Source of the DNA: Macrostomum lignano
Taxonomy: Eukaryota
Length of the DNA: 64,000 nucleotides
Direction: 5' to 3'
Assembly: GCA_002269645.1 (NCBI GenBank)
Contig: NIVC01003721.1
Location: 62,001-126,000, forward strand
The translations under genes were made by a program, and so were the position numbers. The number at the start of each line of letters is the position of its first letter. The stretch's first letter is position 1. Below the pieces are notes generated by a model, which was not told the DNA's origin, searched no databases, and saw only the letters and a list, made by a program, of their open reading frames with translations. Below are positions 2,821 through 26,468 of the stretch, one piece after another.

Positions 2821-5800
2821 ATGCGGTTTCTGATACCCATGCTGCTGTCCCTGCTGCTCAGGGGCTCCCCATGCAGAGCGCAGTTCGGCATGGAAAACGC
2901 GCCAATCAGCAGCGTGGACTTCCCGTTCCCTGAGTATGCTCAGCCGTGGGAGATCGGGTGAGCTGTGCGGTTTAGCATGTTGCGCTCAGGCACCAGGACT
3001 CAGGATTTAGGCATCATGTTTTAGTATAAACGCAGAGTGACACTTGTTTTTCCTGCTTCAATGGTTGTTTAGTGGCTGGCTGTGTTGACTATTGGTTTCT
3101 CGGGTGTCTGCTGACTTACAGCGGTGTTCGCAATTGATGCTTCAGCGGATGTCTGCTGACTTACAGCGGTGTTCGCAATTGATGCTTCAGCGGATGTCTG
3201 CTGACTTACAGCGGTGTTCGCAATTGATGCTTCAGCGGATGTCTGCTGACTTACAGCGGTGTTCGCACTTGATGCTTCAGCGGATGTCTGCTGACTTACA
3301 GCAGTGTTCGCACTTGATGCTTCAGCGGATGTCTGCTGACTTATAGCGGTGTTCGCACTTGATGCTTCAGCGGATGTCTGCTGACTTACAGCGGTGTTCG
3401 CACTTGATGCTTCAGCGGATGTCTGCTGACTTACAGCGGTGTTCGCAATTGATGCTTCAGCGGATGCCAGACCAGTTTCTCATGAACACTATACAGTCAA
3501 AAGCTGTCAGAGGACTAAATCATTAATCATAAATTTTCTTATTCCCACTTGCAATACGCAGAAAGCAGGTATGCGCCTACCTAAAAACCCAGAGCGGAAA
3601 GAGGATCTACACCACCTGCTTCCCGTACAAGCAGCGCATCTGCGGCGCCGACACGTGAGTGTACTTTAGCTTTCAGGCAAGGAATAACTAAATAGGAGGA
3701 CTCTGCATAGAGAAGGTTTTAGTAATGTGCCCTTTAATTTGAGGTATTCGATGATAAACAAGAACGAAAAATCATAAAAGTGAATATGCTCGTATTCTGC
3801 TATTGCTGTTAAAATTCTGTTAAATTGCTTCTTGCCCTAAACTACTGTTTAGGTTAGTGTTCAGTAGCAATTTTTGCAAATCTCTTTCCTGCTATTTTAC
3901 AAAGTTATAATAAATATCAATGGAATCGACGCGCCGCACGTCCGCAGGCAATTCGAGTACGACTGCTGCCCCGGATACGGCCACGACAAGGACTTCGAGG
4001 GCTACACGACGGGCCCGAACTGGCCGCGCAATGAGAACTGTCTCAAACGGCTGGGCAGGGACGACCTCACATCCAGCAGCGACAGCCTGATGCAGCGGAT
4101 CGGCGCGGATGCTGCCACAACTGGCCGGTTCAGACGAGACCTGGAAAGGTATGACCAGTGCAGCGTGCGCTCACTGTATCGAGAGCCAAGTAGTAGGTTC
4201 TAGACTGAAATCATTGCACATTTCATCACCAATTGCATCGCTCAATAGCGCGCATCATTCAATGCAGAGTTGCGGGCCAGCTGACGGCATTCCTGCCCTA
4301 CAAGGAGACCTACAAGTCGAGGCGCTTCGACTCCGACGCGGGCGATTCGACGGCCTACATGGCGCTGGGCAGCCACTTTGTCCGGCACCTGCTCGATGGA
4401 GTCGCTGTGCCCAGCGCCGATACTGGCGGCTCCATCAAGATATCGAGATACTCGAACGGAGTGAGTCTGTCGGGTGGTATCGGCTATGGCTGGTGTGTGA
4501 GAGTAGCCTGACTGCCGTGCACTGACTAACTGACCAACTAACTAACCAACTAACTAAATTTGACACCCTAATTTGATTCTTTTAAACTTTCAGATAATTT
4601 GCGCCGAGTGCAGGCGGTTTGTGTCAGCTGATCACAGTCTCGACGACAGGGCTGTGGTGCACTTCGTTGACGGGGGGAGTGTAAAGCGGTGGGATGAAAT
4701 ACCGTCTACGAGCATCACAAGAGGGAAGTAACGAGTCTGTAGAATGAGACAGCCACTGCCGTAACCACCGCAGTTTGTTTTCCCCAGCCGAAAGTCGCTG
4801 GCCGAGCTGCTCAGAGAGCGGTACGCTTACTTCTGGTCCGACATTCCCGCTGGCCTGCAAGCCAGGCTGGGTGACGCCAACTGCGGCCGCTGGTACACCG
4901 TGCTGGTGCCCACCCAGAGCGCCTGGACCGCCGCCAAGACGAAGGCCGGCTCGAACGCTGAGATTCAGGAGAAGCTGCTCCGCGAGCACATCCTGCCCCA
5001 GCTGGTCTGCTCGTCGGCCGTCTGCCAGGACTCGCAGCGCAGCAAGAATTTGAACGGCGAGAACGTCATCCTGGCCTGCGAAGGCGAGGGTCGCGTCTAC
5101 GCGCAGAGGTCGCACGAGTTCGGCGTCAGCAGCGAGAAGGCCTACCTGCAGGCCGGAGCCGACGGAGAGGTCGACCAGATGGCCAGCAACGGAGTGGTGC
5201 ACAAGACCGACAAGGCCCTGCTGCACAGCTCCGGTGCGTGCCTGGAAGATACAGAGCCCGACAGACAGACTGAGATTAAGAATCCCTGCAAACTTACTTG
5301 ATGTGTGATCCCCCTGAATTGCAGCAACCTCCTATCGCGACATCGCCTGGCCAGACTCCGTGCCGGACTCCTGCATCTCGCTGGACCCGGCCAAGCAGTA
5401 CATCTTCCTGATACCGCGGGAAGCAGCCTGGCAGCGTATGTGCGCGGTGTCTCATTCCACTCTGACACTCTGGTGCATTTTCCCATTTTGTTAACTCTCA
5501 CAGTCAGCAGCTCAGCAACACGAGGATGTCACCGTTTAGTTTGTTTGATACTTTTTCGGTTTTGGTCCACGGTAGCTACATGAACTGTACTGGGCGTAAT
5601 TAGGCTGGTGGTTAAAGTCCAAAGTCCGGGGTTAAACTCTAATGATGGGAGTCAAATGATGAAATACCGAGTGCACGCCTGTCTCCGCCGGTAAGGGTAC
5701 CTGCAGCGTCAGCAGCAGCACCGCCTGTGGAACAGTATAGACCCAGCGTGAATGACGTAACCTACCAATGAGAGTCGTCGTCGGCGAGAGAGTCGGCGAG

Positions 5801-8800
5801 AGAGTCGCCGACGGCGCCGGCGGCGAATAGACATCGAAACAACCGAAGGCGCATCACGCAACCGAAACCCCTTCAGGTTTCAAAACTCAGGACACCACAA
5901 TCAGCCCGGAGGAGTCGATGAAGAAGTTCAGCGACTGGTACACCGCGGACGCCACCTACCGCTGTCTAGTGCGCCAGTACCACGTGCTCGAGGCCGAGCC
6001 GGGGCAGACTTCACTGGACAATCTGTGGTCGCAGTTCAACCCGGCCAGCTGGCCGAGAGGACGCCAGCCCGGCTCCTATCGGACGCTGGCCAGGTGGGCC
6101 GCCGGGTCGGACGCTGACGCGACGAGGCGCAACAGCTACGGCTACCTGCAGAACCAGCTGCACTTCCAGAAGGGCGACAACGGGCCAAGGGTTTGTGAAT
6201 AGTTTATAGAATTTTTTTATTTCGCTTCAAAATTCATTTATCAAACTGAAACTGGATGCCCAGTGTCCACCATCGCGCCATTGGTGTGTAAAGGTGCTGA
6301 TGTCTGCGTGATTTCAAAAATCCAACTCGAGGTCCATCCTAGAAAGTAGAAGGCATGAGGGGGCTTCTGGGACAAAATTTTTCACTTCCTCCATAATCCC
6401 ATTAAATCCATCTATATTATCCCTGACAGAATCAGAAAAAAAGGGGGGTCGCACTCGCTCACAAAACGTCCTCCATAATCCCATTAAATCCATCCATATT
6501 ATCCCGACAGAATCATGAAAAAGTGGAGGGGTCGCACTTGCTCCGAAAACTTCGAACATAATCGTATTAAATCCATCCATATTATCCCTGACAGAATCAG
6601 AGCAGGTGTCCACTGATACCTGTTATGTTCACTGACACTGACATAATCCACTGACATCCACCCATAACATTTCTAAAACAATCAGAAAATAATCTGCATT
6701 CTTCTCCACACATTCAATCCGCAACGTGCTACCACATCCCTAAGACTTTAAATCATCAGCGCAGGGTCCTCACCCTTTGAAAAAATTAAATTCTCAATAA
6801 AAATGTTTCCAGTTGTCTCTCCAGGTTCTTATTACAAAGCGCACGAGCCTAATTACAAGAGTAAGTACCGATGCAAACTAGAATGCAGCGAGTACATGAG
6901 AAAATATTGGCCCGATGTTGATATCAATGCCCCTAATATTAATCTAGCTCTTCAAAGACACTGGTTTCATAAGTACGGAGTAACCTACGTAAAAGATTAC
7001 GACAGCTACTATAACTTTGCAGAAATCATTAAGCAATTGTGATTTCTTACATTCTCTCAATGATCAACGTCAATACAAACTCTTCACCGTTGAAATCAAC
7101 ACCTACCCCATCTTCAGTCTCAAACTGTAGCACAATCTCGTGAATCTCCTTATTACTCAATACAACTCTTTTCACTGGATTTGGTTTCTCTACCACCATC
7201 TGTCCTCCAGCAACAGAGTTGGAGATGTTGTACAAAATATTCGTTCGCTTTCCCTTAAATACCCAATCAAGACTGAGATTGCTTCTGATTAGAATATTCA
7301 AACCCTTTACAATGTCTGCAATATTGGGTGCTAAGAACAAACCGCTTACATTTTCCCGGGCCATTTTAACGGTCCCCGATGCTTGAGTGGCGGTCCGCGC
7401 CGCGGATTCTGCCTTATAAACTTTCTTCTCGAATCCCAGTTCCCTATACCAAGTGTCATCTTTAAACTCAACCTCCGCATCTTTGTGAACTTGCATGACC
7501 ACTCTCATTACAGTGAGATCATAGGTTAGTTTGACAGGGAACAGTTTCTTCTCTGGCTTACTCGCATCAGGTGTCTCAAAATGGCCTCTTTTAGTAAAGA
7601 CATTTTCTAGAAAGTTATTGTAGGTATCCACACTTTGCGTGCTCACATGGAATACCACAGGGTCTGCTGCTGCGCCTTTCCATTTGTAATAAAACTTATT
7701 ATTTGCTGCCATCACATTGGGAACGTTTGACCAACCAGTGAAGTCGTTAAGATAGACATGGTAATTAGCACCTGGATCCAGGCGAATCGCCTGCTCTAAT
7801 TTTTCAACAAATATCCCGTTTGAGTCATTAATTCGCCCGGTTATTGTAATAGGAATGCTCTCCTTAGAGTGTGAAACAATGTTATTTAGTCTTTCGGCTA
7901 TAGCTTCCATTTTTTGTCCTAAAAAATATTTAAACTTTACTGGATGAATTGTTGATCATGTTAAGCTTCACCTTCCTCTCAAATGCATAGACAATGTACA
8001 GGTCCACGGGTGTTGCGGTAGTCCTCTCAATGTTAGTCACGATATTCACAGGGCTGTTATCAGTAGGCATTTGTCTGGCAGACACATCAGCGCCAAACAT
8101 CGGATATAGAGTTCCATATTGAAGAGCAGTGATAGCAATTCCATTGTTCTCTTTCACAGCCAAGTCGACCAACTCGCTGTAAAATTTGCTAATCTTGTTC
8201 TGACTGAAATCTCCATTTTGTGGCAGTGCAGGGTAAAGATTATCACTGATTTCATGCTGAATGGACCGCACGTCTCCATGCATGTAGCGTATAATGCTAT
8301 TTGGGTTTCTCATATTAATAATGATATACCTTGGATTGCTGCATGATCCCTCTTTAATGCAGATGTTTGTTCTAGTTTCGTTTCGCTCATCTCTACACAT
8401 GTAGGCTGTGTATGCAACATCAATGTCCTTCTCTATTGCCTTGAGATAATCCGCTTTTAGTGCAGTCTTTGGCTCAATGACTTCCAAATACAGCTCGATT
8501 CCGGTTAGCTTCACAGCCATCCCAGTGTGGTCCGCCCCAGTCCACAACACTCTACTGCGATCATCTCTAGTCAGTCTAAATGTGTAGCTAAAGTTACTAG
8601 TCAGTCGATTAAATGTATTACAGAATCCACTCATGAATCTCAATGGTACAAATACATCAACAGACCGATACAGCGGGTTCTTAGCAGCATCATCAGCACC
8701 TTGCAATGCATAGTTGTATCTCTTCTTCCTATTTTTATAACCACTGTCATTGATATCTCCTTCTTTTTCGTCTGCAATAAAACCCGCACCACTTCCCAAT

Positions 8801-11800
8801 TGAATAAAATCAGGATTCTCGATTAAACAATGAGCGTCATAGACAATTCCAAAGTTGGCGATTCGCTCCAACTCAGTGCTCCCATTCGATACACTAAACT
8901 CCTTGAACATATACGCCCAAAAGTTACTGATCAGAGCCACATCCGCATCATGCTTGTCAACGTTAGCACGAGCCGCATCCGCACCACCCTTTGTCTTGAA
9001 TTGAAATGTCATATGGAAGCCGCTCTTAAGACTGTGCACACTAACCAAAGACGAACATCCATTGTATGTAAATGTCAGTGTTTGACCAGGACCAAGATTA
9101 GTTTCATTCTGATTTTCCTGACTGGGAACTCCCACCCGAGTCGCTTTGATTGTGCTATTATCACTCAAAATAGGCTTGTTAATCTTGTAGAAAACTGGTG
9201 TCAGTGGGTCGTTCATTTTTTAACTAAAAATAAAATAAAATAAGAAATGAAGCGAAAAAGTACACAGCAGATATCTGAATTGGAGAAGCTAGCACAAGCA
9301 GAGAAACGAGTTACCGGGCTAATAAATAAGGAGCAACAATCCTACAATGAGTTTGTCCAAGCAGCCACAGAGTTTCATAAGCCCGGGTATGGAGAAGCTA
9401 AGAAAAATATTGATCAGGTCAAAGAAACTATCGACGACATACAGGAAACCCAGGTGCAAAAGGCCTTGGGCAAAATTCCAGAAGCACCACAGATACAGCC
9501 GCAACCACAGACACAACCGCAACCACAACAATCACAACCACAACAATCACAACCACAACAACAGCAACTAAAAGTGACCGATAACATTTTTGGACCAGTA
9601 GAGCGTGTAGAACATGATGGGAAATATGTATTTGGAATAAGTGTGTGGAGAAGAAACATTTATAATGACCCAGTGGAATATTATATCGACATAAATAAGA
9701 AACATATTTCTGTTGTTAAAGGCTCGGAAACTAAGAGCATTCCTTTCACAGAAACCTTACTGAATTTTATGACCAAGAACCAAGAGAGAATCTCGGACAA
9801 ACAGCTAAATAACTATAGAGATCTAGTGACTTTTGCTCTTGCTAGAGATATAGAAATACTAAAGGCCCCAGAAGTCCTGAGACTTATGTATGATAACGGT
9901 GTCAACCTGACTAGATTCAAAAAGTACAAACACTTTAAACAATGGTTCGGTTTGCCAGATCAGGCGGAAGTCATAAAATATCTAGAACAACCACAACAGC
10001 AACAGCAACCGCCACAACAGCAGCAACATTCCATAGAAGAACAAGTACTCAGTCAACTCGAGCAGTTAGACCCTTTGAAAGTGGCTGAATATAAGAAACA
10101 AAACCCGACAGACTGGCAACACTTAGAACAACACTCTCCAGATCGAATGAACAGAATCAAGCAGAGTTTTCACACCTCAACAAAGACAGGCACCACATGA
10201 CAGTTCCATCTCTGAAAGTGAGCAGTCTTTTGCATCACCTCCCCAGCAGCCACAAGCCCAACCAACTCCACAACCTCAAGACCAACCGCCCTCAACTGGA
10301 AAAGGAATTTCTGAAATCTACAAGCGAGTAGCGGTTCTTCTAGGAGCAGCAAAGACCGGAATGAAAGATGAAAATAGAAAAGAATTTGTCAACATCCTGG
10401 ACAAGATGCTTGAGAGAAAATATATCGATAAAAGAGCAAGAGAACTTTTGCTTTCACGGTTTAACAAAAAATAAATTTCTATTTAAAAAGATGCCAATTA
10501 TTTTCGAAAAAGACATTGACAAATACTATGACAAAGAGGAACTTAATCTCATTAAACGTGGATCTGGACTTTTCCCTGCAGGCCACTATCCAAGAAAAGA
10601 ACGCTCAGGGAACGGTCTTGCCGATTTGATCGCTCAGGGGGCCAAGATTTTTAAGGTCATTGGAGAGAACAAAGAGAACATCAAGAACGTTGCCGAAGCG
10701 GCTGGCAGTGTAGCCACAGCAGCCAAAAAGATAAAGGATACTGTAACACCTAAACAAGAGATTCAGCCTCCACTGGCCCCGCTGGCTCCATTGGCCCCAA
10801 ATCCAGACAGTGTGGACCCTGCAGTCTATGAGAAGATGAGGGCTAGCATTAAAAAAGGAAGTGGTTTCAAATTTGACTAAAGGGTACTTTCCGAGGGTAC
10901 AAGACTAGTCCCGAAATGACACATCTAAGTCCCAAAATGACACATCTAAGTCCCGAAATGACACATCTAAGTCCCGAAATGACACATCTAAGTCCCGAAA
11001 TGACACATCTAAATTATTTATTATTTAAATTTTTTTTTCATCATAGAAAAAATTGACTTTTCAAAAGACTTCAATCCTCACTGGACGCGTAATCAGATTA
11101 AGTTTTCTCATCACGAGTCAATTCCGAGTCACTTCAGATGCATTGTTGTTGGTTCATCAGGTTCAGGTAAAACATTCAGAGTCTTTAACATGCTTCTTAG
11201 ACCTGGCTTTATCGACTATGACACTCTGCACATCTACTCTCCCACACTGTATCAAGATGAGTATAAAATGTTGATTTCTGGATTGCAAAACAAACTGCAC
11301 AAAGAGGACATTATTGCATGTTTTAATAACCAAATGAGCCTTCCCAGTAACCCTGAAATTGTAGCTGCTGAATATGCAAAGCACCTCAAAGACAATGAAA
11401 AATGGCAGAACATTAAAGTGTTCACCTATGGAGATCCACAGGCTGATCCAAAGACCAAACTTCTACCCCAACCAGATGAGCTAGAAAAGGGGAGAAAGCA
11501 TTTGATCGTCTTTGATGATTGTATGACAGGCCCACAGAAGCAGATAGAAAACTATTTTACAAGAGGGCGACATAACAATTGCAATGTAATTTACATTGCA
11601 CAGAATTGGTTCGAGCTCCCGAACAAAACAATTCGTGGGAACTGCAATCTGATTCTCCTGTTTCCAACCATTCCACAGGACAGGCTAAAAAGATTTTACA
11701 ATGAGGTCATTGCGCCTGCCTATTTCATAAATCCAACAAAAAACTCAAGCAGAAAGATTTCACAAGAGGAATTCGTTAATCTTTGCTATGACAAGTGGAA

Positions 11801-14800
11801 TCAGCCTTACCAGTTTGTGATTATCAGCAAAGACAAAAGAACTGTAATTTAAAATTTGCTATTAAAAGATGTCGATAAACTTTGCAGGTGAGTCAACTAC
11901 AGGCAACAGCACTCTCACAACTTCCTTCCTTGATAAGCGCTACATTAACACTAATGAAGAGATCCCAGAGATCAAACTGAATAAAAACAGACTGAAACAA
12001 TTAGAGCGCTCCATGCACCAGTTGCAAATAAACATGGAAGATCTCAGGCTTAAAGTAGCTAGGCAGAAGTTTGAAAGTGATAAGCTTTATGTGCCGTTGT
12101 TAAACGCAACTAATGAACTAAGGTCAGAAATAACTTCGATAGTCTCGCTAATCAACGGCTTGAGATCATCAGTTAATCTTCTGGGAAATTCCACTGATAG
12201 ACGAATGCGTATTCTCGAAGGAGGAGTTTTCACAAACACAGCTAAAGTAAATAATTTAGAAGAGTTCATGAACCAGTCAACAGCGTTGCATGATAGAATT
12301 AAAGAAAACGTCGCAACCAACACAGTTAAAGTCAATAATTTAGAAGAGTTCATGACTCAGTCAACATCGTTGCATGATAGAATTAAAGAAAGACTTGATG
12401 CATTAGAGAGAAACGATGTATCACACAGTAGCTATCTAAACGGAATGTATAGCTCTTGGGGTAAAATAATAAGGAGGCTTGATCGTCTGGAGAGAACACT
12501 CAATCTTCGTGATATTGCTATTGATGAAGCAGAATCTGCTGCTCGTCCGGTCATGTCTACAGATCGAGTAGAAGGAGCTCTGGACCCCGACGGAGTAATC
12601 CGGCACGCTCTCAAACGTCAGCCGCCCAGCCGCTGCCTGCTGGACTCGCGATCCTCCAGCGTCAAGAGAGCCGCCTAGACAACCGGCGGTGCAGATGGAA
12701 TTATCAAAAAGAAAACAGATCTTTCAACCGGATAGTTTTATAATTTTTATTATTTTTTCTAGAGAAAAAAATGGCCCAACAAAATTCTCTATACGATCAG
12801 TCTCAATATGCTGAACCTAAAATACCGACAGCACCAAACTCAATGGCACCGAATTCGAACACACAAAACCTGGCACCGAATCTGAATGCATCGAATCTGA
12901 ATGCACCCAATATGAGCAACAAAAACTCTACCCGTCATTACTTGTAACTCTCAACAGTTTCGACTGGTGGAGATTCAAAAAATGCGCGATGATCTTGAAA
13001 AAAATATTTTCCACAACACAAAGAAAATTAAGCGCTATGACAACCACTGTAAATTTTTCGACTACAGCAATATATTCTAGGATCTGTGTCTGTTCTATCT
13101 GGATCTGCTGCAGCTGTCTCAGTGTTGCCAGCCATCACAGCCCCAATCGCAATTCCACTTGGTTCAGTAGGTGCTGCATGTGGACTTATTTCAGCAATTA
13201 CTGGAGCAGTAGCGCGAAACAGGCGAAAAAAACTAAAGCAGCTACAGGAGAAGCAAGTAAAAGAGAAAGGGTGCACACTTCAATCATAGGGTACATTTCA
13301 AGGGCAATCGAGGATAAGTTCATTTCAGAGGATGAGTTCAAAACCATTCAGGATCTTTATGAACAATCAATTCGAATGAACTTGAACATGGTCGGTACTG
13401 ATGACATGAGTCAGCTGAAAATGAACTCGAGAAAGTTTTCAACATTATGTGGAAAGAAAGTCGGCGAAAAATTCGGCAAGAAATTCGGCAAGAAGGACGA
13501 CGAGAATGCACAATGAACCCTATGAAACACAGCCAAGAATAATTTCCTTGTAGGTCTTTCGTGTTTTGGTCATTGCATACAAAACAGTCATGCACAGCTC
13601 ACCGCAAATATCACTGCTAAGACCTTGGAGAATAAAGTCTGAGCGATAAATTTTTTTATTTTTTTCCCCTTCATATAATTTCTTAGCTCTTCTGGTACTG
13701 CCGTCCCATAGCTATCGAAGTAATAACACTTGTGCTTGCGATCGGATCAATCACCCAGCAAACCCAATGAGATCCTGGCTTATCGGTGGTGTCAAAGTTC
13801 ATGATGCCGCATTCCTTTCTTAGAGGAAAATCGGGCAGAGTGTCCCTCATAAATATTCCTCTAAAGTTTGGGATTTCCAGTTCGTTAGCCAAATCTTCAA
13901 GAAAGTTATTTGTCGTCATTTTTTTATGAGGTTTATTAAACTTTCTCTTAAACCTAAACCCAATCTCCTAATCTCCTAATCTCCAGTGCCCGAATCTAAC
14001 TTCCACCTCCTAAGCCTAATCTCCAATGCCCGAACGGTAGACTGTTAATGTTGTCATCAAAAATGAATCTCTTGTTATCTGCACCTGACAGTCCAATCTT
14101 CTTTTGCTGAATTGTGTGAATAATATGGTTTTTAGATTGTAGCTTTGAGAACTCATGTGATGTCTTTTTGTTGCAATTCAAGGCGTCTCTGTATTCAGCT
14201 TCATTAATTTCCTTCCTAACTACACGTTTCGGAATTCCCTTTGATTTTTTGATTGGGTCTGACGACTCACATTTTATAAAATAGGACTTTGCTCTCAACC
14301 CAATGAATTCAGTGATTATGTCACCAGCAATCTCGTCCTTCATTTTCCCAATCACTTTCTTGTTAGTGGCGTCAAACACTTGATCGCCATTCTGTGTCCT
14401 GCAAGATTCATCATACTCAGACAAGTCAAACAAATCTTTTTGCTGCAGCATGTCCTGATAAATGTCTTGTTTGAATGTCCATAATAAAACTGTCTGTGTC
14501 GTGTACAAGAGTTTCATTTTATCCTTGTACTGCTGCTTCATGCCATAGAAGAACTGGTACATCAGACGTTTTGATTCGTCGAGAACAGTGACACCTGTAT
14601 AGATCGGCTTGCGCAGCGTCACCTTGGTTTTGTAAAATATGATCACACCTAAGTAGCTATTAAAGATATGGAGTTCTTTGAATGTTGGCTTTGACATATT
14701 TGCCTGAATAACAGCAGGCTCTGATGAGGTAACAAGTTTCAGGTTTGTTCTTTTCCGCTCATTCTCAAGAGTCTTGCCATAGACAGAGTTGTTGGCCAAC

Positions 14801-17800
14801 TTAAAGAGGTTCTTGTCAAAGTCGTTGGTTGCTTTGGTCCTAAACTGGGTGTTCTTATCAATGTAGGGTTTCATCCACGCTTCCTCTGTAAATGTAAGAG
14901 CCCGGTGAACTTTGGTGACCCTGCAACCAAGTGAGATAAAATACTGAAGCAGTTTGTAATGGATTTTGTAACGTGTCTTGTTGTTTAGATTCTGTGTTAG
15001 TTTCTCTGTATGTTCTTTTTCTGTTCCTGACAGGCCAAGTTCCATTATTATCATTGGGAGTTTCGATTATTTTCGGGCACTTGATGTTCTCTGGGAAGGG
15101 TGGAAAGTCAGAGAAATAGTCGTGAAGCTCTGGTGGAATGTAAACATCAACTTCATAAATGGCAGCCAATGAAAAGTCCCGTTTGAATTCTGATGAGGGT
15201 AACCATCGAAAATCTCTAACTGGAAGATCTTGACTCATCGCCCACCCGTAGAGATTATTAGCGTCCAAGTAAGTAATGTAGTTTGAGGGCTGCTCCTTAT
15301 TGTAAGATTCAATGTAGGGATTGTTTGCTTTTGCATATCTAGTGCAAATTGAGATCCCCCTCGCTTTGATGATTCGACAAAATTGTACATGTCAATGTCT
15401 GTAAGAAGTTCAATGTACCAATCTGGATCTTGATCCCATTTCATTTAAGCAAAGATTCCCAGCTAGTGGCAGGCAGAGACACATAATGTGCTGGATCGAG
15501 GCCATATGCTGTGTACCAGGTATATCTGAAGGTTTCAAACACATCGCGCCAGCAGAAACACATCTGTGAAGAGGTAAAGCAGGTGATACTGGAAGAAGTT
15601 TTGACAATTAAAGTAATTATAGACATGCTTCGCGTGCTCATAGTCTTTGTCAGAGATTCCAGAGTCTGTTAGCTTTGAAAAGAACTTCTCCTGTGGTGGT
15701 AAACCTTCTTCAAATACGTGATACCCAGTAATATTTTCATAGGGGTAGAAGCCTTTGTTCTCAGGAGTTTAAATGATTCATCACTGTTGTTAATTTTACT
15801 TGCAAACATCTTTGTATATGTACATTGTTCATCTTTTAGATTCTTGCTTAGTTCGTCTAGACTGGCAGCTAGAAATTGATATGAATCCTTCAGTCTTATT
15901 TTACCTTACCCGAATTATCCTGTTTAATATCAACACACTTAAACTTCTCCTTGTTCTCTGCGATGCAGTCAAGGTGTATGTCTGGAATCATGCCGATTTT
16001 TTCAACTATTAAATGCATGTCATAGTTCTTTGCGTTGTGACAAAATATCGTTAGATCATGAATGTTCGATTTTAGCTTTAGATTACAGGTGTTATGCGCT
16101 GCACCTCTAAATTTCCCAGTAAAGTGGCAGTGGTCCCTAACGGTGGGGTTTTTAATATCAGTGCAAGTTAAATGTTTCCTGCAGATGTGGCAATGAGTTG
16201 CTGATAGGAAATTGCTTTCATCCTCCTCAGTCATCATTATTGAACAGGTTGAAGGGTGCTAATCACTTTTTGCAACTCTAACATTCTGGCAATAAACTGC
16301 TCCACACACTGCTCTCCAAAGAAATAATTATACTCAACAAGTCCTTTTGTATTAATAAAGGCATATGCTACTGAATTGGGGACATTTTTGAGTTTGAGTT
16401 TGTTTTTGAGTTTCTGGCATGATTGAGCATTCGAAATCAGCATATACAACAAATGGGAGCTTCTCCATCTTGTGATAGTTCTTAAACCGGAGATACTTCT
16501 CTTCAGCTGAAGGAAGAGAGCAGTTTGTCGGGTGATCCTCGCATGATAATTCATGCTCTGTTAGTTTTCAAAGCGTTCAGGTCCACTGTAATGCTTAAGG
16601 CACAAGCGGCAGATGGCAACAGCCTCGTGATGATATTCAACTGCTTGTGAATGAGTCTTGAAAGATCTTTAATCCAAACATAGTGAGCCTCCTCTAGTAA
16701 ATTACCAATCACTAGAAGATCCACTTCATCCGCCTTTTCCCCTCAGGATCTAAAACGTCTTTGCTACATCTGACCGGTTGAACTTCTCAGTTTTTTCACT
16801 CCACTCAAAGACTGTGATTCTAATTTTGTTATTAAACACTTCTTCTAGCTTTGGGATCTGAGAGATCGCCAAGCCTCCTTTGTCAAACCTGATTCCCTTC
16901 TTTTCGCATTCGATGAGATAGTAGTTGAAATAATTTGATAATTTGAGGTTCTTTCGGGTGGTGAGGACACTAATAGTGCAGAAAGAACTGCCCATAGAGC
17001 ACAGCAATTGTCTTTATTTTTAACATTTATGCAGCTTTTTTGCCGGCTAGCTTATGCGGGGAGCTCTATATAAGAGGAGGCTTTAAGTGGGTCATATTTC
17101 ATGACCATGACGTCGCTCTTTGAATCCCTCCCACGACCCATCCGGAACCTCTGGATGTAAACGCTTCAATTTTCTTAGTGACATCTTGAAGGAAAGGATC
17201 CAGTGTGTCAGTAGGGGTGAATGGTTTTGCCTTTGTTGTCATGTAATACTCGAGATGCTCAGTGGGTTTGCAGGCATATAAAACGCAATCTTGAATGATA
17301 TCTGTAGTTTAAAGTCTTGCGTGTTTTGAGTGTGTGATCAACAACTGATTGGATGCTGTCTTTATAGTCGTAGATGTTTGCGGTGGTATCCTTAATTGGG
17401 ATTGTGTACTCTATGTAATGTTCTGTAAACTTCCTCTGTGCAAAATTAATCTCTTCAATGGCAAGCTCCGACTCTTTTAAATGGATTAATTGCTCTAATT
17501 TCTCTTGTTCCTGCTTATTTTGTGGGTACTTTGCTTTTTCACCAGTGAGAGTTTCGTATTTGTTAACTAAGTTGCGACTCCTCTCTTGGTGTTCCTTTGC
17601 AGAATTTTTTATAGGCGCATACTGGTTGGATTCTAATTGATTGATGATTTCCAACTGTTTTTCATAGCTTCCCAGGTGACCAGGGTCGGTGTTAAACTTT
17701 GTTGTATGCTTCTCTTAGTGAATTACTTTTGTCTTGAAATGACGCCTTTTGAAAAATATTTGTTGACTAAATCTTTGCTGGATTAGCTTTTGCATTTTTC

Positions 17801-20800
17801 TCTAAAATAAAAAAAAATTTTGAGGGTGACCACCCTGATAGAAAAGTTGAACTGTTTCTACATCCTATCAGTAGTATTAGGTTTATGAAGCTGATAAATG
17901 GGGTTTTAAACCTCATCACATGCGCATTATTGTAAACCCAGCATTGTGCAGTGTCATGATGGCTTTGACAATGTCAGACTTGCTTACAGAATTTTCAATG
18001 CTCAAAATCATCACGATCGGGCAGCCTCAGGGACCTCTCCTGCCTTAATTGTTATACCTTTGTCTCTTGCAATCTTTGCAATTCAAGCTGGTGGGCTCTA
18101 TCATTCCCAGCTTTAACAGCAGTTGCTACACCTCCAGCTACACCACCTGCGGCACTTACAGCGCCTGCAATGATTCGGAATAAGAGCTGCTAATGGTAGG
18201 ATTCCTCCTGACTTTTCATCTGTGATGCTGTGTCTTTGCTCATTACACTGAACTTTGCTGCACGGGATCGATTTTTACTTTGGCACCTTTAATTGATATA
18301 AGACTGGTTCTTTGATTCAATGATTTTATTGAGTTTATTGATGGTTCTGGTTTCAATCTTTGTCATTTTTATTTTAATATTTTAATTAATTTCTGTGTCA
18401 GCCGGTATCACTAGGAGTTCAGCTCTAGTGAATGACCGCGTGGGGATTTAGGGTTAAAGGCTGAGATAAAAAGTAATAGTCACCAGAGTCGGAGGTAAAA
18501 TGTCTGTCTATTTTATGTACATCAAGGCTGAAGTATGGATCTGTAGCTCTTCTTTTAGTGTTTTCTCTAGCTCTCCAGTAGATATAAAAAGCGTAGAAAC
18601 TCAGAGTTTGTCAGTATATATGGTGATTCAACTCCTGGAAGCTTAGGGTAGTTCGAGGTGTCTGTTCTATGAGATGCCTTAAGTTCGACAGTGTCTTGTT
18701 TAATTGCATGGGACGGTTTCAATCCAGTCATACGTGTGACTTCATTGTTCAGTTGCTCTATAACAGTGGGGAGCCGGTCTGTCCATTTTGAATAGTACTG
18801 ACCACTTTTTAGTTTCAGCTCCTCAGCTGTCTGCTAGTGAATAGCCTCTTGGCTAGAGTTAGATTGAATCTCTCAACGTACGCTTGGTCTCTGTGCAAGT
18901 TTGTTCTGCCATAGCGAATCTCTGTGTCATGCTTATGTAGAAGTGATTTCACTGCACCCATGAATTCTTTGCCAGGATCAGTCATAAAGGTTTCAGGGTA
19001 GCTAAGGGGTGAGTTTTTATAAATATCTTGGAGGGCGGCTGCAACTGCTTCTGACTTCTTCGTCTTGAGTGGGCGAGCTTCCTTATATCTGGAAGCAACG
19101 TCTGTAATTGTAAGAGCATACTTGTAGCCCGAGTCATTGGGGAGAAACAGAAGATCTGCTTGATGCGCCTCATTAGGTTTATAAATACTGAAATGGGGCC
19201 TTTCAAATTTTACTGGTGGGAAATAGACTTGAAAGACAGCCTGCTTAGAGAGCCATTTTTCTACTGTAGCTTTTGGTTCCTTACTCAGCTCCATGAGTTT
19301 ACTAACGGCATTTTTTGCCTACAAAGAATCCTTTGTCGCTGTAGTAGAGTTTTTTAAGTTTCTGATCTGTCATTTTTTTAAAAAGAAAATTTAAAATAAA
19401 ATAATGCAACGCTCTGGTGGTAAGTTAGATTCACATGGACTGATAGAAAAGCTTCCTCATCCAAACAAAGGCTGGACACTTCCCGGCTATAAATATTGCG
19501 GGCCTTTGAATCCACTTGAAATACAGTTAGATACAAACGATAATCCAAATCCTGGGCATGAGCCTGTGAACGAGCTAGACTCTGTCTGCATGTGGCACGA
19601 TGTTAAATATAGGGATTTTCCTGAGGAGAAGAATCGCTGGGACAAAGAAATGCTTAGAAGACTAGACAATATAGGGGCTTCAAGCGGATTTCGTGAGTCG
19701 ATCGCTCGGAAGCTAGTTAAAGCTGTTATTTTTAGTAAGGCAAAACTGGGGTTGGGGGTTGAAGGCGAGGGTGGGTGCTTGGGGAGAGAGGGCTGGTGCA
19801 CGAGGAGAGAGGGCGGAGGCTCAGGAGCGGGGTTTATTTTGTGCGCTCCTAACAAGAAATTGGGAAGACTGCTGAAAGAGCTGGGGGTAGAGAGAGACGC
19901 TTGAGTCGGGAAGGGCATGAGCAAGTGTGGATTTGAGTAAGTACAGTTTTTTATTCCCTAAAGAGTTGCGCACAAGAGAGATTCTCATTCTTCAGAGAGC
20001 TAAGAGCAGAAAATGAAAAAAAAGTCAACCGCTTCACCGCCATTGGCATGCATGGACTGCTTGGGATTCCTTGATTGATATTGATTATTGGCCAAATTGC
20101 GAGGCCAGTTGGCCCGCCGAGTTGGCCTCGGCCCGCCGATTTGGCCTCGGAATGTGGCCCGCTTTGTTGGTCTATACGGTATGAAGATATGGGGGGGGTA
20201 GAGAGGGGCGCTTGAGTCGGGAAGGGTTTAACTATTATTCTCAACCCTGGCCAAACGCGACAGCTGCATTTGAAATGTTGAGAAGCAGAAGGGGGGTGGG
20301 GTAACTGCTATTGCTGAGGGGGGGGGGCGTAGCCCTCTAATCGATTTTGCGAATGTACAAGTTCCACGTGTGCATTCCTTTCCGCTTTGACAACCGGAGG
20401 GAAGGAAGCGGGTGGAGGGAATTGATCGCTCGGAAGCTAGTTAAAGCAAGCAAGAAAATTCAGCTCATTTTGCTCGCACACGTTCTTCGTCGCGCAATAC
20501 TGCACCGTTGTGGCTGCTGATTTCATTATGTTGTAAGTTTATTCATTTTTTACTTACTGAAATTCTATACTGTGTTAAGAATTGAAAAATCTCTTATTTT
20601 GATTAAATCTTTGTTTTTAGTTCACAAAAAATTACGTTCTACTCGACCGACCTAGAAAATCTCCATGGTCGCCTTGTTGAAGGATTAGATGCCAACGAAC
20701 CGGCATCAGAGAGAATTCAAGAAGTTCTCCATCATTTCTTCAATGAAAAAGTTGAGAACCAGCGAATTTGTTCAAGAGCGGCCATGGAGACCCAGGATAA

Positions 20801-23800
20801 CAACTACGCCATGAGAACCGAAATGGTGTTTGACGAACTTCGCCGATCATTTGTTGCTGATGAAGATTCACTTCTTAGTTATCAACAAATTTTTTCCAGG
20901 ATTTTATCAATGTAAGCTACTGATAGTAGTCTTCTAAACACTTTCCTGGATCTCCAAGATTTTTTTCCAGGATTTTTTTTAAACTCGTGCCAATTCCTGA
21001 CAATACAGGAATTCCTGACAATACAGGAAAGTCTTTTACTGGATTTTTTCCAGGATTTTATCAATGTAAGCTACTCATAGTAGTCTTCTAAACGCTTTCC
21101 TGTATCTCCAAGATTTTTTTTAAACTCGTGCCAATTCCTGACAATACAGGAATTCCTGACAATACAGGAAAGTCTTTTACTGGATTTTTTTCCAGGATTT
21201 TATCAATGTAAGCTACTCATAGTAGTCTTCTAAACACTTTCCTGTATCTCCAGGAATTTTTTAAAACTCGTGTCAATTCCTGACAATACAGGAATTCCTG
21301 ACAATACAGGAAAGTCTTTTACTGGATTTTTTTCCAGGATTTTATCAATGTAAGCTACTCATAGTAGTCTTCTAAACACTTTCCTGTATCTCCAGGATTT
21401 TTTTTAAACTCGTGCCAATTCCTGACAATACAGGAATTCCTGACAATACAGGAAAGTGCTGTTCACAAAATGACTGGGAGGAAAATCAATATTATTCTGG
21501 ATCCGAAGAATATCGATTTTGGATTGTGTGAGGATCTACAATATCTTGTTCTTTCTCTACCTTATTCATTTCCAGCCTTGCAACTAAGCTTGCGCGTCGC
21601 GGACCAGCATTAGCTGGGGTAATTGGGGGTGTGTGGCGACTCCCCCAGTCCTTGGACTGAACAGCCGTACGCAGCCTTCAGATCTGCTCTTTCCTCCTTT
21701 CCTTTCCTTTGTTTTATGTAAATATACTTGTGAATAAATGAACTCAGTATGTTTTTTAGTAAGCTTTTGTGTTTGCTTTTCGATTTCTTCTGTTGCTGGA
21801 GGACAGATGGTGGTAGAGAAACCAAATCCAGTGAAAAGAGTTGTATTGAGTAATAAGGAGATTCACGAGATTGTGCTACAGTTTGAGACTGAAGATGGGA
21901 TGGGTGTTGATTTCAACGGTGAAGAGTTTGTATTGACGTTGATCATTGAGAGAATGTAAGAAATCACAATTGCTTAATGATTTCTGCAAAGTTATAGTAG
22001 CTGTCATAATCTTTTACATAGGTTACTCCATACTTATGAAACCAATGTCTTTGGAGAGCTAGATTAATATTAGGGGCATTGATATCAACATCGGGCCAAT
22101 ATTTTCTCATGTACTCGCTGCATTCTAGTTTGCATCGGTACTTACTCTTGTAATTAGGCTCGTGCGCTTTGTAATAAGAACCTGGAGAGACAACTGGAAA
22201 CATTTTTATTGAGAATTTAATTTTTTCAAAGGGTGAGGACTCTGCGCTGATGATTTAAAGTCTTAGGGATGTGGTAGCACGTTGCGGATTGAATGTGTGG
22301 AGAAGAATGCAGATTATTTTCTGATTGTTTTAGAAATGTTATGGGTGGATGTCAGTGGATTATGTCAGAGTCAGTGAACATAACAGGTATCAGTGGACAC
22401 CTGCTCTGATTCTGTCAGGGATAATATGGATGGATTTAATACGATTATGTTCGAAGTTTTCGGAGCAAGTGCGACCCCTCCACTTTTTCATGATTCTGTC
22501 GGGATAATATGGATGGATTTAATGGGATTATGGAGGACGTTTTGTGAGCGAGTGCGACCCCCCTTTTTTTCTGATTCTGTCAGGGATAATATAGATGGAT
22601 TTAATGGGATTATGGAGGAAGTGAAAAATTTTGTCCCAGAAGCCCCCTCATGCCTTCTACTCTAGAACTATATAACTTTTGATATTTCCCGGGCTAAAAC
22701 TACTAATAGTAACGTAAATTCATGTCTGAATTTTCGTCCTATCTTACGGGTTCCCATGTCGCAGAAATCCATCTCGACAACCTTGATCTCTTGAGTTCTC
22801 GACAATGCCTGTCGTATGTACTGTAGTGTCAGACAGTCTTACGCCCGAGCACTGTAACCTGATTGCAGCTTCACTACCAGTTTGCTCCCGTGCGAAACGC
22901 CAACGGCTTTGCGCTGAAAGAGGGCCACGGCTACATGGTAGACTGGGTCAACGTCCCGCCGCACGAGAGCTCGACTGACTTTTTCAAACGCCGACCGGAT
23001 CTCAGCAAGCACCTTGACCTAGTTAATGAGGAGAGAGAGTTGGCTACCGGTGAAGGTAGGCAGGCCCTGTACAATGGTGAGGGCGCGGTCCAGCTTATCA
23101 TTGTGTCCAAGGACGCCTGGTACAACAAAGGCATAAGCTCAACGCTGAGAAAAGTGGACACCGTCCATGATCTTATAAAAAACAACTGGAATTTGACGGA
23201 TGTAAGAACTCATTATTCTTATAGTCTCTATTTTATCCAATGCCTGGCATGATCCTGAACAAACTTTTACTCCAGTTCCTCTTGCTCAACTGGGGCAACC
23301 TGCAATACTGGCTTGGCGACCTGGGCTACCTGGCCAAGGGCGAGAAAGTGTTCATACAGAGCGGCCACCCCGACGTGCTGATTGGCGTCTGCCGGCATTT
23401 GCAAACTGGCAAGTTCTACGTGTGGAACGAGATGAAGACGGCCGAGCCAGAGAGTCTGCAGTCTGTGCAGTCTCGCTGGGTAAGCGCATGGGCCAAGGGT
23501 CGGCAAACTTTTTACCTCGATGTCCAGATAGAGAAACCAGCGCATGACTACGGGCCAGAGGGGGAAGAGGAGAGAGAAGAGAGATAGAAGAAGAGAGAAT
23601 AAATAAGAGGAGGTGAAGAAATCGAAGAGATGAGAGGAGTGAAGGGAGAGCAGAAGAGAGGACAGAAGAGAAGGAAAGCAGAGAGGAGATGGATGATTAG
23701 AGAGTAGGGAGCTGAGAAGAGGCACAAACCCTAAGCGGGCCGGATTTCTATTCTGAAGTTTCAAAGGACCTCTCTTGGATAGAGAGGCTTTGTGGGCCGC

Positions 23801-25317: not shown

Positions 25318-25802
25318 TGGAGTCCAGGAGCAAGCAGTTTTATCCTTAGTGAGAGAGAAGCAATCTATTAAAAAGAGAAGAAGGTAATAGCATGACCTTT
25401 TTGCCCGACAGGCCAATAACCAATACCCTTTAACGCCATAGACTATCAACACCCGCTAATGTCGAATTTGTGGGCAAATGTTCTTTTGAACATAGACAGT
25501 TTGTTGTTTCTGTTTCTTGCGCTCTACGCCGCCCGACTCTGCCCCCTCACACCCCACCCTTGCTATGAAATCGTAGCCTGAGCAAATATGTCTATGGTAG
25601 CTCGTATATTAGCTTGATTCTCTCACTTAGGATTGAACTGCTTGCTAATCAGTTGGCTTGTAAAAAATACAACAGTGTTCTGTAAACGGATTTCGCAGCA
25701 AAGATTAGCCTTCTGCGCAGCGTTAAACCCGAGGTTTTACCATAGACAAAACTCATGCACTTGTTTCATCCGCAAACTCAGAAGCTGAAAATGTGAGACT
25801 AT

Positions 25803-25995
25803 GGGCCGTATGCAGAAAGCTTAGTCCAGACTAGCTAGTCCGGACTTGGGTAGTTCAGTCTATGGTCTATGGTCTAGCTACCCTAGTTCTGCTATAGTAG
25901 ACCGATCTAACTTTGCGTTTCTGCATACCAAATCCAAGTCCAGACTAGCTTTTCAAGACCGGACTACCCTAGACAGAGCTTTCTGCATACGGCCC
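25803..25995 (+). mobile_element. 193-bp MITE (PIF/Harbinger-like), copy 1
   Basis: TIR GGGCCGTATGCAGAAAGCT / AGCTTTCTGCATACGGCCC; 3-bp TSD TAT. Confidence 0.8.
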
Positions 25996-26021
25996 TATGC
26001 ATTAGCAAGATAGCACATATT

Positions 26022-26215
26022 GGGCCGTATGCAGAAAGCTCTGTCTAGGGTAGTCCGGTCTTGAAAAGCTAGTCTGGACTTGGATTTGGTATGCAGAAAC
26101 GCAAAGTTAGATCGGTCTACTATAGACAGAACTAGGGTAGGTAGACCATAGACTATAGACTGAACTACCCAAGTCCGGACTAGCTAGTCTGGACTAAGCT
26201 TTCTGCATACGGCCC
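26022..26215 (-). mobile_element. 194-bp MITE, copy 2, inverted relative to copy 1
   Basis: Near-identical reverse complement of 25803-25995; flanks ATT/ATA. Confidence 0.8.
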
Positions 26216-26468
26216 ATAGACTTTTATCATAGTTTCTAGCAGTATTTTAACCAATGATTCAAGTTTCCTTAGATCTGAAACAAATCCAATTTCAATTATT
26301 TTTATTACGTCTAATCCATATTTACTAGCTAGATAATAACTATTAGATGCTACACTGCTGTGCAAGGATTGACACCTATATTTAAATTATTCTGTCTGAT
26401 ATTTGCAAACATTTTTCTTTCAAGTATTTTCTGTTTTGGGTAAACAACAAGCGGATTCAGGAATTATT

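Follow-up and report, generated by a model that had tools for sequence, protein, structure and literature searches.

Animal Polintons/Mavericks and adintoviruses with the PLA2X virion module combine AG...CT termini, a 6-bp target-site duplication (TSD), an integrase, a type B polymerase, an ATPase, a protease, major and minor capsid genes and a PLA2-like gene in about 16 kb, according to the accessible text of the sources (PMC8502044, PMC8097293), where their terminal inverted repeats (TIRs) are reported as lengths only. These are 46–1447 bp in vertebrate Mavericks (PMC8097293) and 100–1500 bp in Polintons (10.1101/2023.08.22.554363), and TIR identity serves as a sign of recent insertion (PMC12220804), as far as those texts were available. 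In poxviruses, the expansion of inverted terminal repeats (ITRs) in mpox 2022 isolates and in a vaccinia model involves end-to-end duplication, deletion at the receiving end, truncated junction genes, transfer in both directions and reciprocal products, in hairpin-ended, non-integrating genomes of 190 kb (accessible text of PMC10230479). Megamimivirus TIRs of 12–37 kb are also gene-bearing with variable content, genes in the TIR of one virus lying outside it in another; in the accessible text, the comparison is between species, the model is transposase-driven and arm-level conversion analysis is absent (PMC13712841). In adenovirus and PRD1, panhandle homology restoration makes the two ends of a protein-primed linear genome identical by copying, as known from engineered genomes in culture (accessible text of PMC11886824); it restores ends without lengthening the repeat inwards. 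For Polintons, Mavericks and adintoviruses, no description of gene-bearing TIRs or of moving TIR boundaries was found in a mostly open literature without the founding Polinton papers, Repbase notes and supplements. Polinton TIR boundary movement was absent from the accessible text of 10.1101/2024.01.15.575659, 10.1101/2023.10.06.561300, PMC12220804, PMC11296320, 10.64898/2026.07.28.741278, PMC8363768 and PMC8502044; the supplementary TIR tables of PMC8097293 and PMC12220804 may bear on its novelty.

The stretch analyzed here (the window) comprises 64,000 nucleotides of Macrostomum lignano (assembly GCA_002269645.1, contig NIVC01003721.1, positions 62,001 to 126,000) and harbors one integrated element (Table 1). 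Its TIR arms show 9 substitutions and no gaps over 873 nt (99% complementary), a length that is not unusual given the reported ranges. Both arms start with AGTAG, so that the AG...CT termini of Polintons/Mavericks are present, and 6-bp TSDs were found at this element and at most sister copies. The PLA2-like accessory gene, which marks the Alpha-class virion module of adintoviruses as defined in the accessible text of PMC8502044, is present, and the capsid genes comprise a double jelly-roll major and a penton-fold minor protein. The latter (287 aa) gave no Pfam or PDB match by sequence and is identified by fold only; its model (14 sequences, pLDDT 78) best matched the mavirus penton 6G42 (E 9e-10), followed by adenovirus and Sputnik pentons. 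Motifs A, B and C of the type B polymerase (PolB) were found in 45, 44 and 48 of 100 half-element loci, and A and B in the window. The polymerase, fragmented in the window, had no Pfam, PHROG or PDB polymerase match, and PF03175 was absent in a profile search of its fragments and of a 1097-aa frame of another copy. The putative packaging ATPase and cysteine protease showed the motifs given in Table 1, with no family match above cut-off. On the integrase, PLA2-like and double jelly-roll matches and the PolB, ATPase and protease motifs, the element is classified as a Polinton/Maverick.

Table 1. Features of the element and its flanks (window coordinates).
Feature	Position	Strand	Evidence or remark
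Integrated Polinton	6345-22661		CTAGAA flanks = 6-bp TSD
Left TSD copy, CTAGAA	6339..6344	+	repeat of hexamer at both flanks
Right TSD copy, CTAGAA	22662..22667	+	
Left TIR arm = penton end, 873 nt, AGTAG terminus	6345..7217	+	
Right TIR arm = integrase end	21789..22661	-	inner junction 21788/21789
Imperfect sub-repeats of ~82 bp within TIR	6384..6601		copy number differs among elements
ORF79 (79-aa gene), left copy	6803..7042	+	purifying selection; weak RNase T2-like lead
Penton (minor capsid protein), 287 aa	7047..7910	-	fold match; last 171 nt inside TIR
Major capsid protein, double jelly roll	7930..9216	-	PF21738 E 7e-5, below cut-off
Packaging-type ATPase	11151..11852	+	Walker A, Walker B, RGRH motifs
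Adenain-type protease region	13600..13919	-	disrupted here, with its His and Cys motifs out of frame with each other
Type B DNA polymerase region, several frame pieces	13996..17714	-	motif A 15265, motif B 14802; endonuclease VII-like domain
Retroviral-type integrase	18815..19294	-	PF00665 E 1.4e-10, above cut-off
PLA2-like gene	19404..19904	+	PF08398 E 1.8e-13
142-bp repeat, 4-5 copies	20890..21469		variable accessory region; this copy without long accessory ORF
80-bp piece of very high-copy genomic repeat	21604..21683		inside element
Orphan 73-aa ORF	21738..21959	+	penton residues 231-287 behind 16 codons derived from T-rich non-coding DNA; start not conserved
ORF79, right copy	21964..22203	-	same protein, 5 silent differences

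The element and its relatives also show variable parts. A variable slot, bounded by the PLA2 gene and the integrase-side TIR, is occupied by at least 10 unrelated or distant ORFs of 130–300 aa across L061–L160, several of which look like coiled-coil proteins with a common C-terminal helical motif; it is devoid of such ORFs in the window copy. The same termini and replication module are joined to a second capsid module (penton 73–80% and major capsid 78–79% identical to those of the window) in L063, L075, L084, L094, L114 and others. Family elements are nested within other family copies in L109, L115/L116, L117/L118 and L143. The 82-bp TIR sub-repeat has grown to ~9 or more units at one end of C2715 (L137 1840–3613), and in C819b the integrase-side ORF79 is interrupted by 2.2 kb of inserted DNA carrying a 352-aa ORF (L083, ~600–2800). 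The 80-bp high-copy piece (window 21604–21683) has a summed depth far above that of the element and is missing from C2038 and C1319, which have the junction described below. The surroundings of the insertion (window 4765–6202 and 22863–23587) contain several open frames of 100–180 aa, possibly another mobile element, two of which had no Pfam match, and a near-perfect 430-bp palindrome, with arms 97–99% complementary, lies at 25796–26222.

The sequence-only reading had claimed that the 873-bp inverted repeat spans the 79-aa ORF and 171 nt of the penton gene, ending at 7217/21789, and that the right end thereby carries a penton C-terminus open from an ATG at 21738. Both claims were confirmed (6345–7217 / 21789–22661; 21738–21959, 73 aa). 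An exact 32-mer across the 21789 junction was found on 7 genomic contigs (0 for the control), as compared with at least 92 exact matches for the native penton continuation and at least 188 for the terminus. A diverged form of the same junction on two further contigs brings the total to 9, which correspond to seven insertion sites after two same-insertion pairs were merged (C2715 has the right flank of the window, and C187 has that of C1203); a distinct flank was seen for six. In short-read data, contigs of runs X1, X3, X5 and X16, from four studies, bridge the junction with at least 31 letters on each side in a diverged variant, and the exact form of the window occurs in one X1 contig that passes the junction by 20 letters only. 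No listed piece of run X13 bridged the 7217 junction. A neighboring junction at 7218–7221, followed by two telomere-like TTAGGG-type units and a different inner sequence, was observed in C2034 (L128), and the same type occurs in a contig of run X13.

Comparison of the inner boundary across the family was based on 50 elements for which both ends were fetched, with more ends added later. Arm lengths among the 50 ran from 184–275 nt up to 1125, 1618, 1752 and 4854 nt, and two further elements with perfect TSDs had arms of 4755 nt (one insertion on three contigs) and about 6.2 kb. TIRs of sister copies thus range from about 0.2 to 6 kb, some 30-fold in one family of one genome. For the integrase-side census, 39 elements were picked mainly by paired termini, and 36 remained after exclusion of one N run and two duplicates. 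Among these 36 ends, 6 held a penton piece, 12 the whole ORF79 without penton, 5 part of ORF79 and 13 neither. Any impression that the state of the window is peculiar to this copy was contradicted, as ORF79 is found at 18 of the 36 sampled ends and a penton piece at 6; about half of the family thus has a gene within its TIR.

Five junction types were observed within the penton gene, at 7106 (3 elements), 7112 (1), 7217 (9 contigs), 7218–7221 (1) and 7582 (4), each with its own inner neighbor sequence. The sequence-only reading had proposed this comparison of inner boundaries, with routine penton tails in relatives as the outcome adverse to it. Relatives with penton tails do exist (6 of 36), but their breakpoints differ, which strengthens a dynamic reading. 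Boundaries are abrupt, with 0–4 nt of microhomology or filler where both parents are known. Layering was seen at two ends, where a penton tail or ORF79 copy from an earlier duplication has itself received a newer one. The penton of the window resembles the orphan tail of C819b and C1330 at 99% and their resident penton at 77%, which indicates that capsid modules were exchanged after the duplication and that the orphan persists without linkage to the gene it came from. A search of 10 + 10 pattern matches did not yield the outward parent of the 7217 junction; hence, we infer the loss of an accessory gene there. The spacer after ORF79 was considered as a relic of an integrase end, and no support was obtained for spacers of 380, 878 or 65 nt. 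Mirror-image defectives with arms of 1.75–6.2 kb were also observed (L198/L199 in C276, L196/L197/L215 in C2140, L121/L122 in C633 and L123/L124 in C1584); although the integrase and polymerase region is mostly or wholly missing from them, they have perfect 6-bp TSDs and were likely mobilized in trans.

Transfer in the reverse direction was found in C70, C986 and C1525, all with matching TSDs. Their penton ends are without ORF79 and hold 2.0–2.8 kb, of which 1.5–2.3 kb is 88–99% identical to integrase-side ends elsewhere, with accessory ORFs of 212–225 aa in the transferred segment of two of the three. These penton ends have one common junction with a short filler matching neither parent. At their integrase ends, ORF79 and part of the penton-end spacer are joined to the last PLA2 codons with a few bases of microhomology, and 55 nt of spacer is present at both ends. 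Deletion at the receiving end was seen as the loss of ORF79 in this class and of the last PLA2 codons in another. Three different cassettes lie outward of one reverse-class junction, which would fit later re-copying from an inner anchor to the tip. The two end types of this class correspond to A' and B', the reciprocal products in the vaccinia/mpox model, as given in the accessible text of PMC10230479. The parallel with poxvirus ITRs drawn in the sequence-only reading holds: two-way transfer and reciprocal end types are found next to end-to-end duplication and non-homologous junctions, often mid-gene. The differences from poxviruses are that this is a 16-kb integrating element, protein-primed by its Polinton class, in which each state is a chromosomal record and a core capsid gene is cut. 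As against animal Polintons in the accessible text of PMC8502044 and PMC8097293, the ~30-fold TIR variation, the genes and gene pieces in TIRs and the two-way transfer set this family apart.

The two arms of an element are closer to each other than to those of other elements. Among elements with the 7217 junction, arm identity within an element was 99.0% in the window, 99.5% in C1076 and 99.3% in C875 (both arms and TSD), versus 94–97% between elements, which implies that the arms were re-copied after the shared junction arose. In C875, a stop in ORF79 is present on both arms, which differ there by 0.4%. Over the terminal 126 nt of 49 elements, the median difference was 0.8% within and 4.8% between elements. 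In the window, 2 differences fall in the outer 607 nt versus 7 in the inner 266 nt (p 0.005). Across TSD elements, differences were more numerous in the inner half than in the outer half for 22 of the 28 cases without a tie (p 0.004), an uncontrolled count in which one locus was entered twice and which is inflated by local-alignment ends. When scaled to between-element divergence, the polarity was 12 up, 4 down and 2 ties for ORF79 (n = 18, sign test p 0.077) and 11 up, 6 down and 6 ties for the middle region (n = 23, sign test p 0.33). Homogenization in 18 TSD elements involved the tip (126 nt) only in 6, ORF79 only in 0, both in 8 and neither in 4; in the middle-region comparison (n = 23), the corresponding numbers were tip only 8, middle only 2, both 10 and neither 3. 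These counts are suggestive of more frequent re-copying at the tip than inside. Arm identity spans about 75 to 100% among elements with perfect TSDs, several being only 76–90%; hence, recombinants can integrate without repair, and TIR identity as a sign of recency would mislead here.

These observations are probably best explained by an inner TIR boundary that has moved many times, in both directions, by non-homologous end-to-end recombination followed by re-copying of the arms, likely from the tip inward and of panhandle type. In a first step, a non-homologous crossover or polymerase template switch would join the left end, past the old TIR, to the interior of the right end in opposite orientation; what had been on the tip side of the junction would be replaced, often with the loss of an accessory gene. 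The junctions are observed directly, and linear replicating genomes would be their setting. In a second step, displaced strands would anneal via the repeat and one arm would be copied from the other towards the tip, a mechanism proposed for the homogenization observed. In a third step, the products integrate with 6-bp duplications, as found at the copies themselves. Recombination between lineages would supply new arm differences, and both boundary shift and re-copying would take place in extrachromosomal replicating DNA. All the evidence comes from integrated copies in one assembly and from short-read contigs, with no extrachromosomal or replicating form among them. The controlled tip polarity (p 0.077 and p 0.33) and the 4 of 18 TSD elements homogenized nowhere count against this explanation.

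An alternative is that boundary shifts and arm identity arise after integration, by gene conversion or ectopic recombination among the hundreds of chromosomal copies or arms. The at least 188 exact termini in the genome offer many partners, chimeric loci without matching TSD exist and the controlled polarity tests are not significant. However, seven insertion sites with flanks of their own have one junction in common, which must predate those integrations; end-swapped and mirror-image forms have perfect TSDs, and ORF79 was homogenized without the tip in 0 of 18 elements. This alternative is therefore considered unlikely.

Extension of a folded 3' end in a panhandle copies only outward of the annealing point, towards the tip. 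It cannot move an inner boundary, and the panhandle copying invoked in the sequence-only reading as the cause of TIR expansion therefore covers the second step only: copying from the penton to the integrase end stands, as does arm re-copying judged by within- and between-element identity, but the boundary shift, with its non-homologous junctions, does not. Panhandle copying alone, with a displaced strand folding back and the polymerase copying beyond the old inner boundary, would account for the re-homogenized arms with their tip-anchored tendency, and panhandles are commonly invoked to explain how homology is restored in protein-primed replication, direct evidence being described as lacking (accessible text of PMC11886824). 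The abrupt boundaries and the existence of reciprocal end types, together with outward-only extension, make it improbable as the sole process. A copy-back template switch at microhomology was counted under end-to-end recombination with re-copying.

The orphan ORF contains 57 penton residues (231–287), the last three strands of the penton model, behind 16 codons of T-rich DNA that also flanks other junctions. Selection of this 73-aa ORF as a new gene, for example a truncated penton fragment bearing a signal peptide, with the expansion kept for it, would be in keeping with its hydrophobic N-terminus, with a frame that stays open after ATG 21738 in 6 of the 9 contigs, corresponding to 4 of the 7 sites, and with the absence of stops in 14 orphan penton tails, whose pN/pS is 0.22. 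However, the start is shifted in C875 and the frame is closed by a stop in C2038 and C1319, tails in other copies are 55–60, 66, 171 or 536 nt with other neighbors, and three jelly-roll strands are all that the tail encodes. The low ratio is expected from re-copying of the native gene, whose tails have a pN/pS of 0.076. The new-gene reading is thus very improbable, and the orphan ORF is likely a neutral passenger; the open frame noted earlier holds for the window and is not conserved. Contigs from four runs presumed to be RNA extend over the stretch and are uninformative on transcription, strand or level.

ORF79, in comparison, behaves as a real gene carried at either end, judging from its pattern of substitution. 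Its translation is identical from both window arms despite five silent differences, the pairwise pN/pS is 0.28–0.29 at either end (non-independent pairs) and a stop occurs in 8 of the best 150 of 605 candidates. No homologue at near lengths was found in a set of 5.8 billion sequences, no match was obtained against PDB sequences, and two matches in a 50% representative search were judged spurious (repeat-rich proteins, 20–28 positions matched). Fold searches with a model of pLDDT 58.6 yielded no clear match (Foldseek, best E 4.2; VIA, best Z 5.0). Weak matches to PF00445 (RNase T2) were obtained for 6 of 18 ORF79 variants (best E 0.0027, 17.5 bits versus a cut-off of 26), covering only profile positions 65–101 around the second active-site segment, and the Atlas, at 0.90 with low recognition, pointed in the RNase T2 direction. 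The WFEKHG segment of the variants resembles the second RNase T2 active-site motif (CAS II). However, 79 aa is too short for a full RNase T2 domain (CAS I and CAS II), and the low-confidence model had no RNase T2 fold match. A relationship to RNase T2 is a lead only.

The sequence-only reading had also raised misassembly of the duplicated segment; although the assembly has redundant and chimeric contigs (C2715 has the right flank of the window but not its left end), an artefact is scarcely credible and was rejected, as the window has no N, the junction lies on 9 contigs that differ in sequence and represent seven insertion sites, and it is spanned by contigs from four runs, each of a different study, one of which may be the assembly's own sample.

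A process known from poxviruses and mimiviruses thus extends to a further class of element, whose record of it is unusually rich. Polinton replication has so far been a model without direct observation, and tip-anchored re-copying of arms, reciprocal end-swapped forms and integrated mirror-image defectives are the traces expected of linear protein-primed replication with recombination between genomes; such traces can be counted in any long-read genome. It is tentatively proposed, as a possibility we hold somewhat short of an even call, that the ends of this animal Polinton family act as a "terminal gene accordion," swapping and duplicating genes during extrachromosomal, co-infecting replication, moving ORF79 and exchanging the accessory cassette between ends and lineages, with panhandle repair fixing the result. 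If true, TIR divergence would not date Polinton insertions, a 16-kb element would have a route for gene relocation and accessory-gene exchange so far known from poxviruses and mimiviruses, and its hundreds of integrated copies would offer the first naturally preserved record of how Polintons replicate by strand displacement and recombine outside the chromosome.
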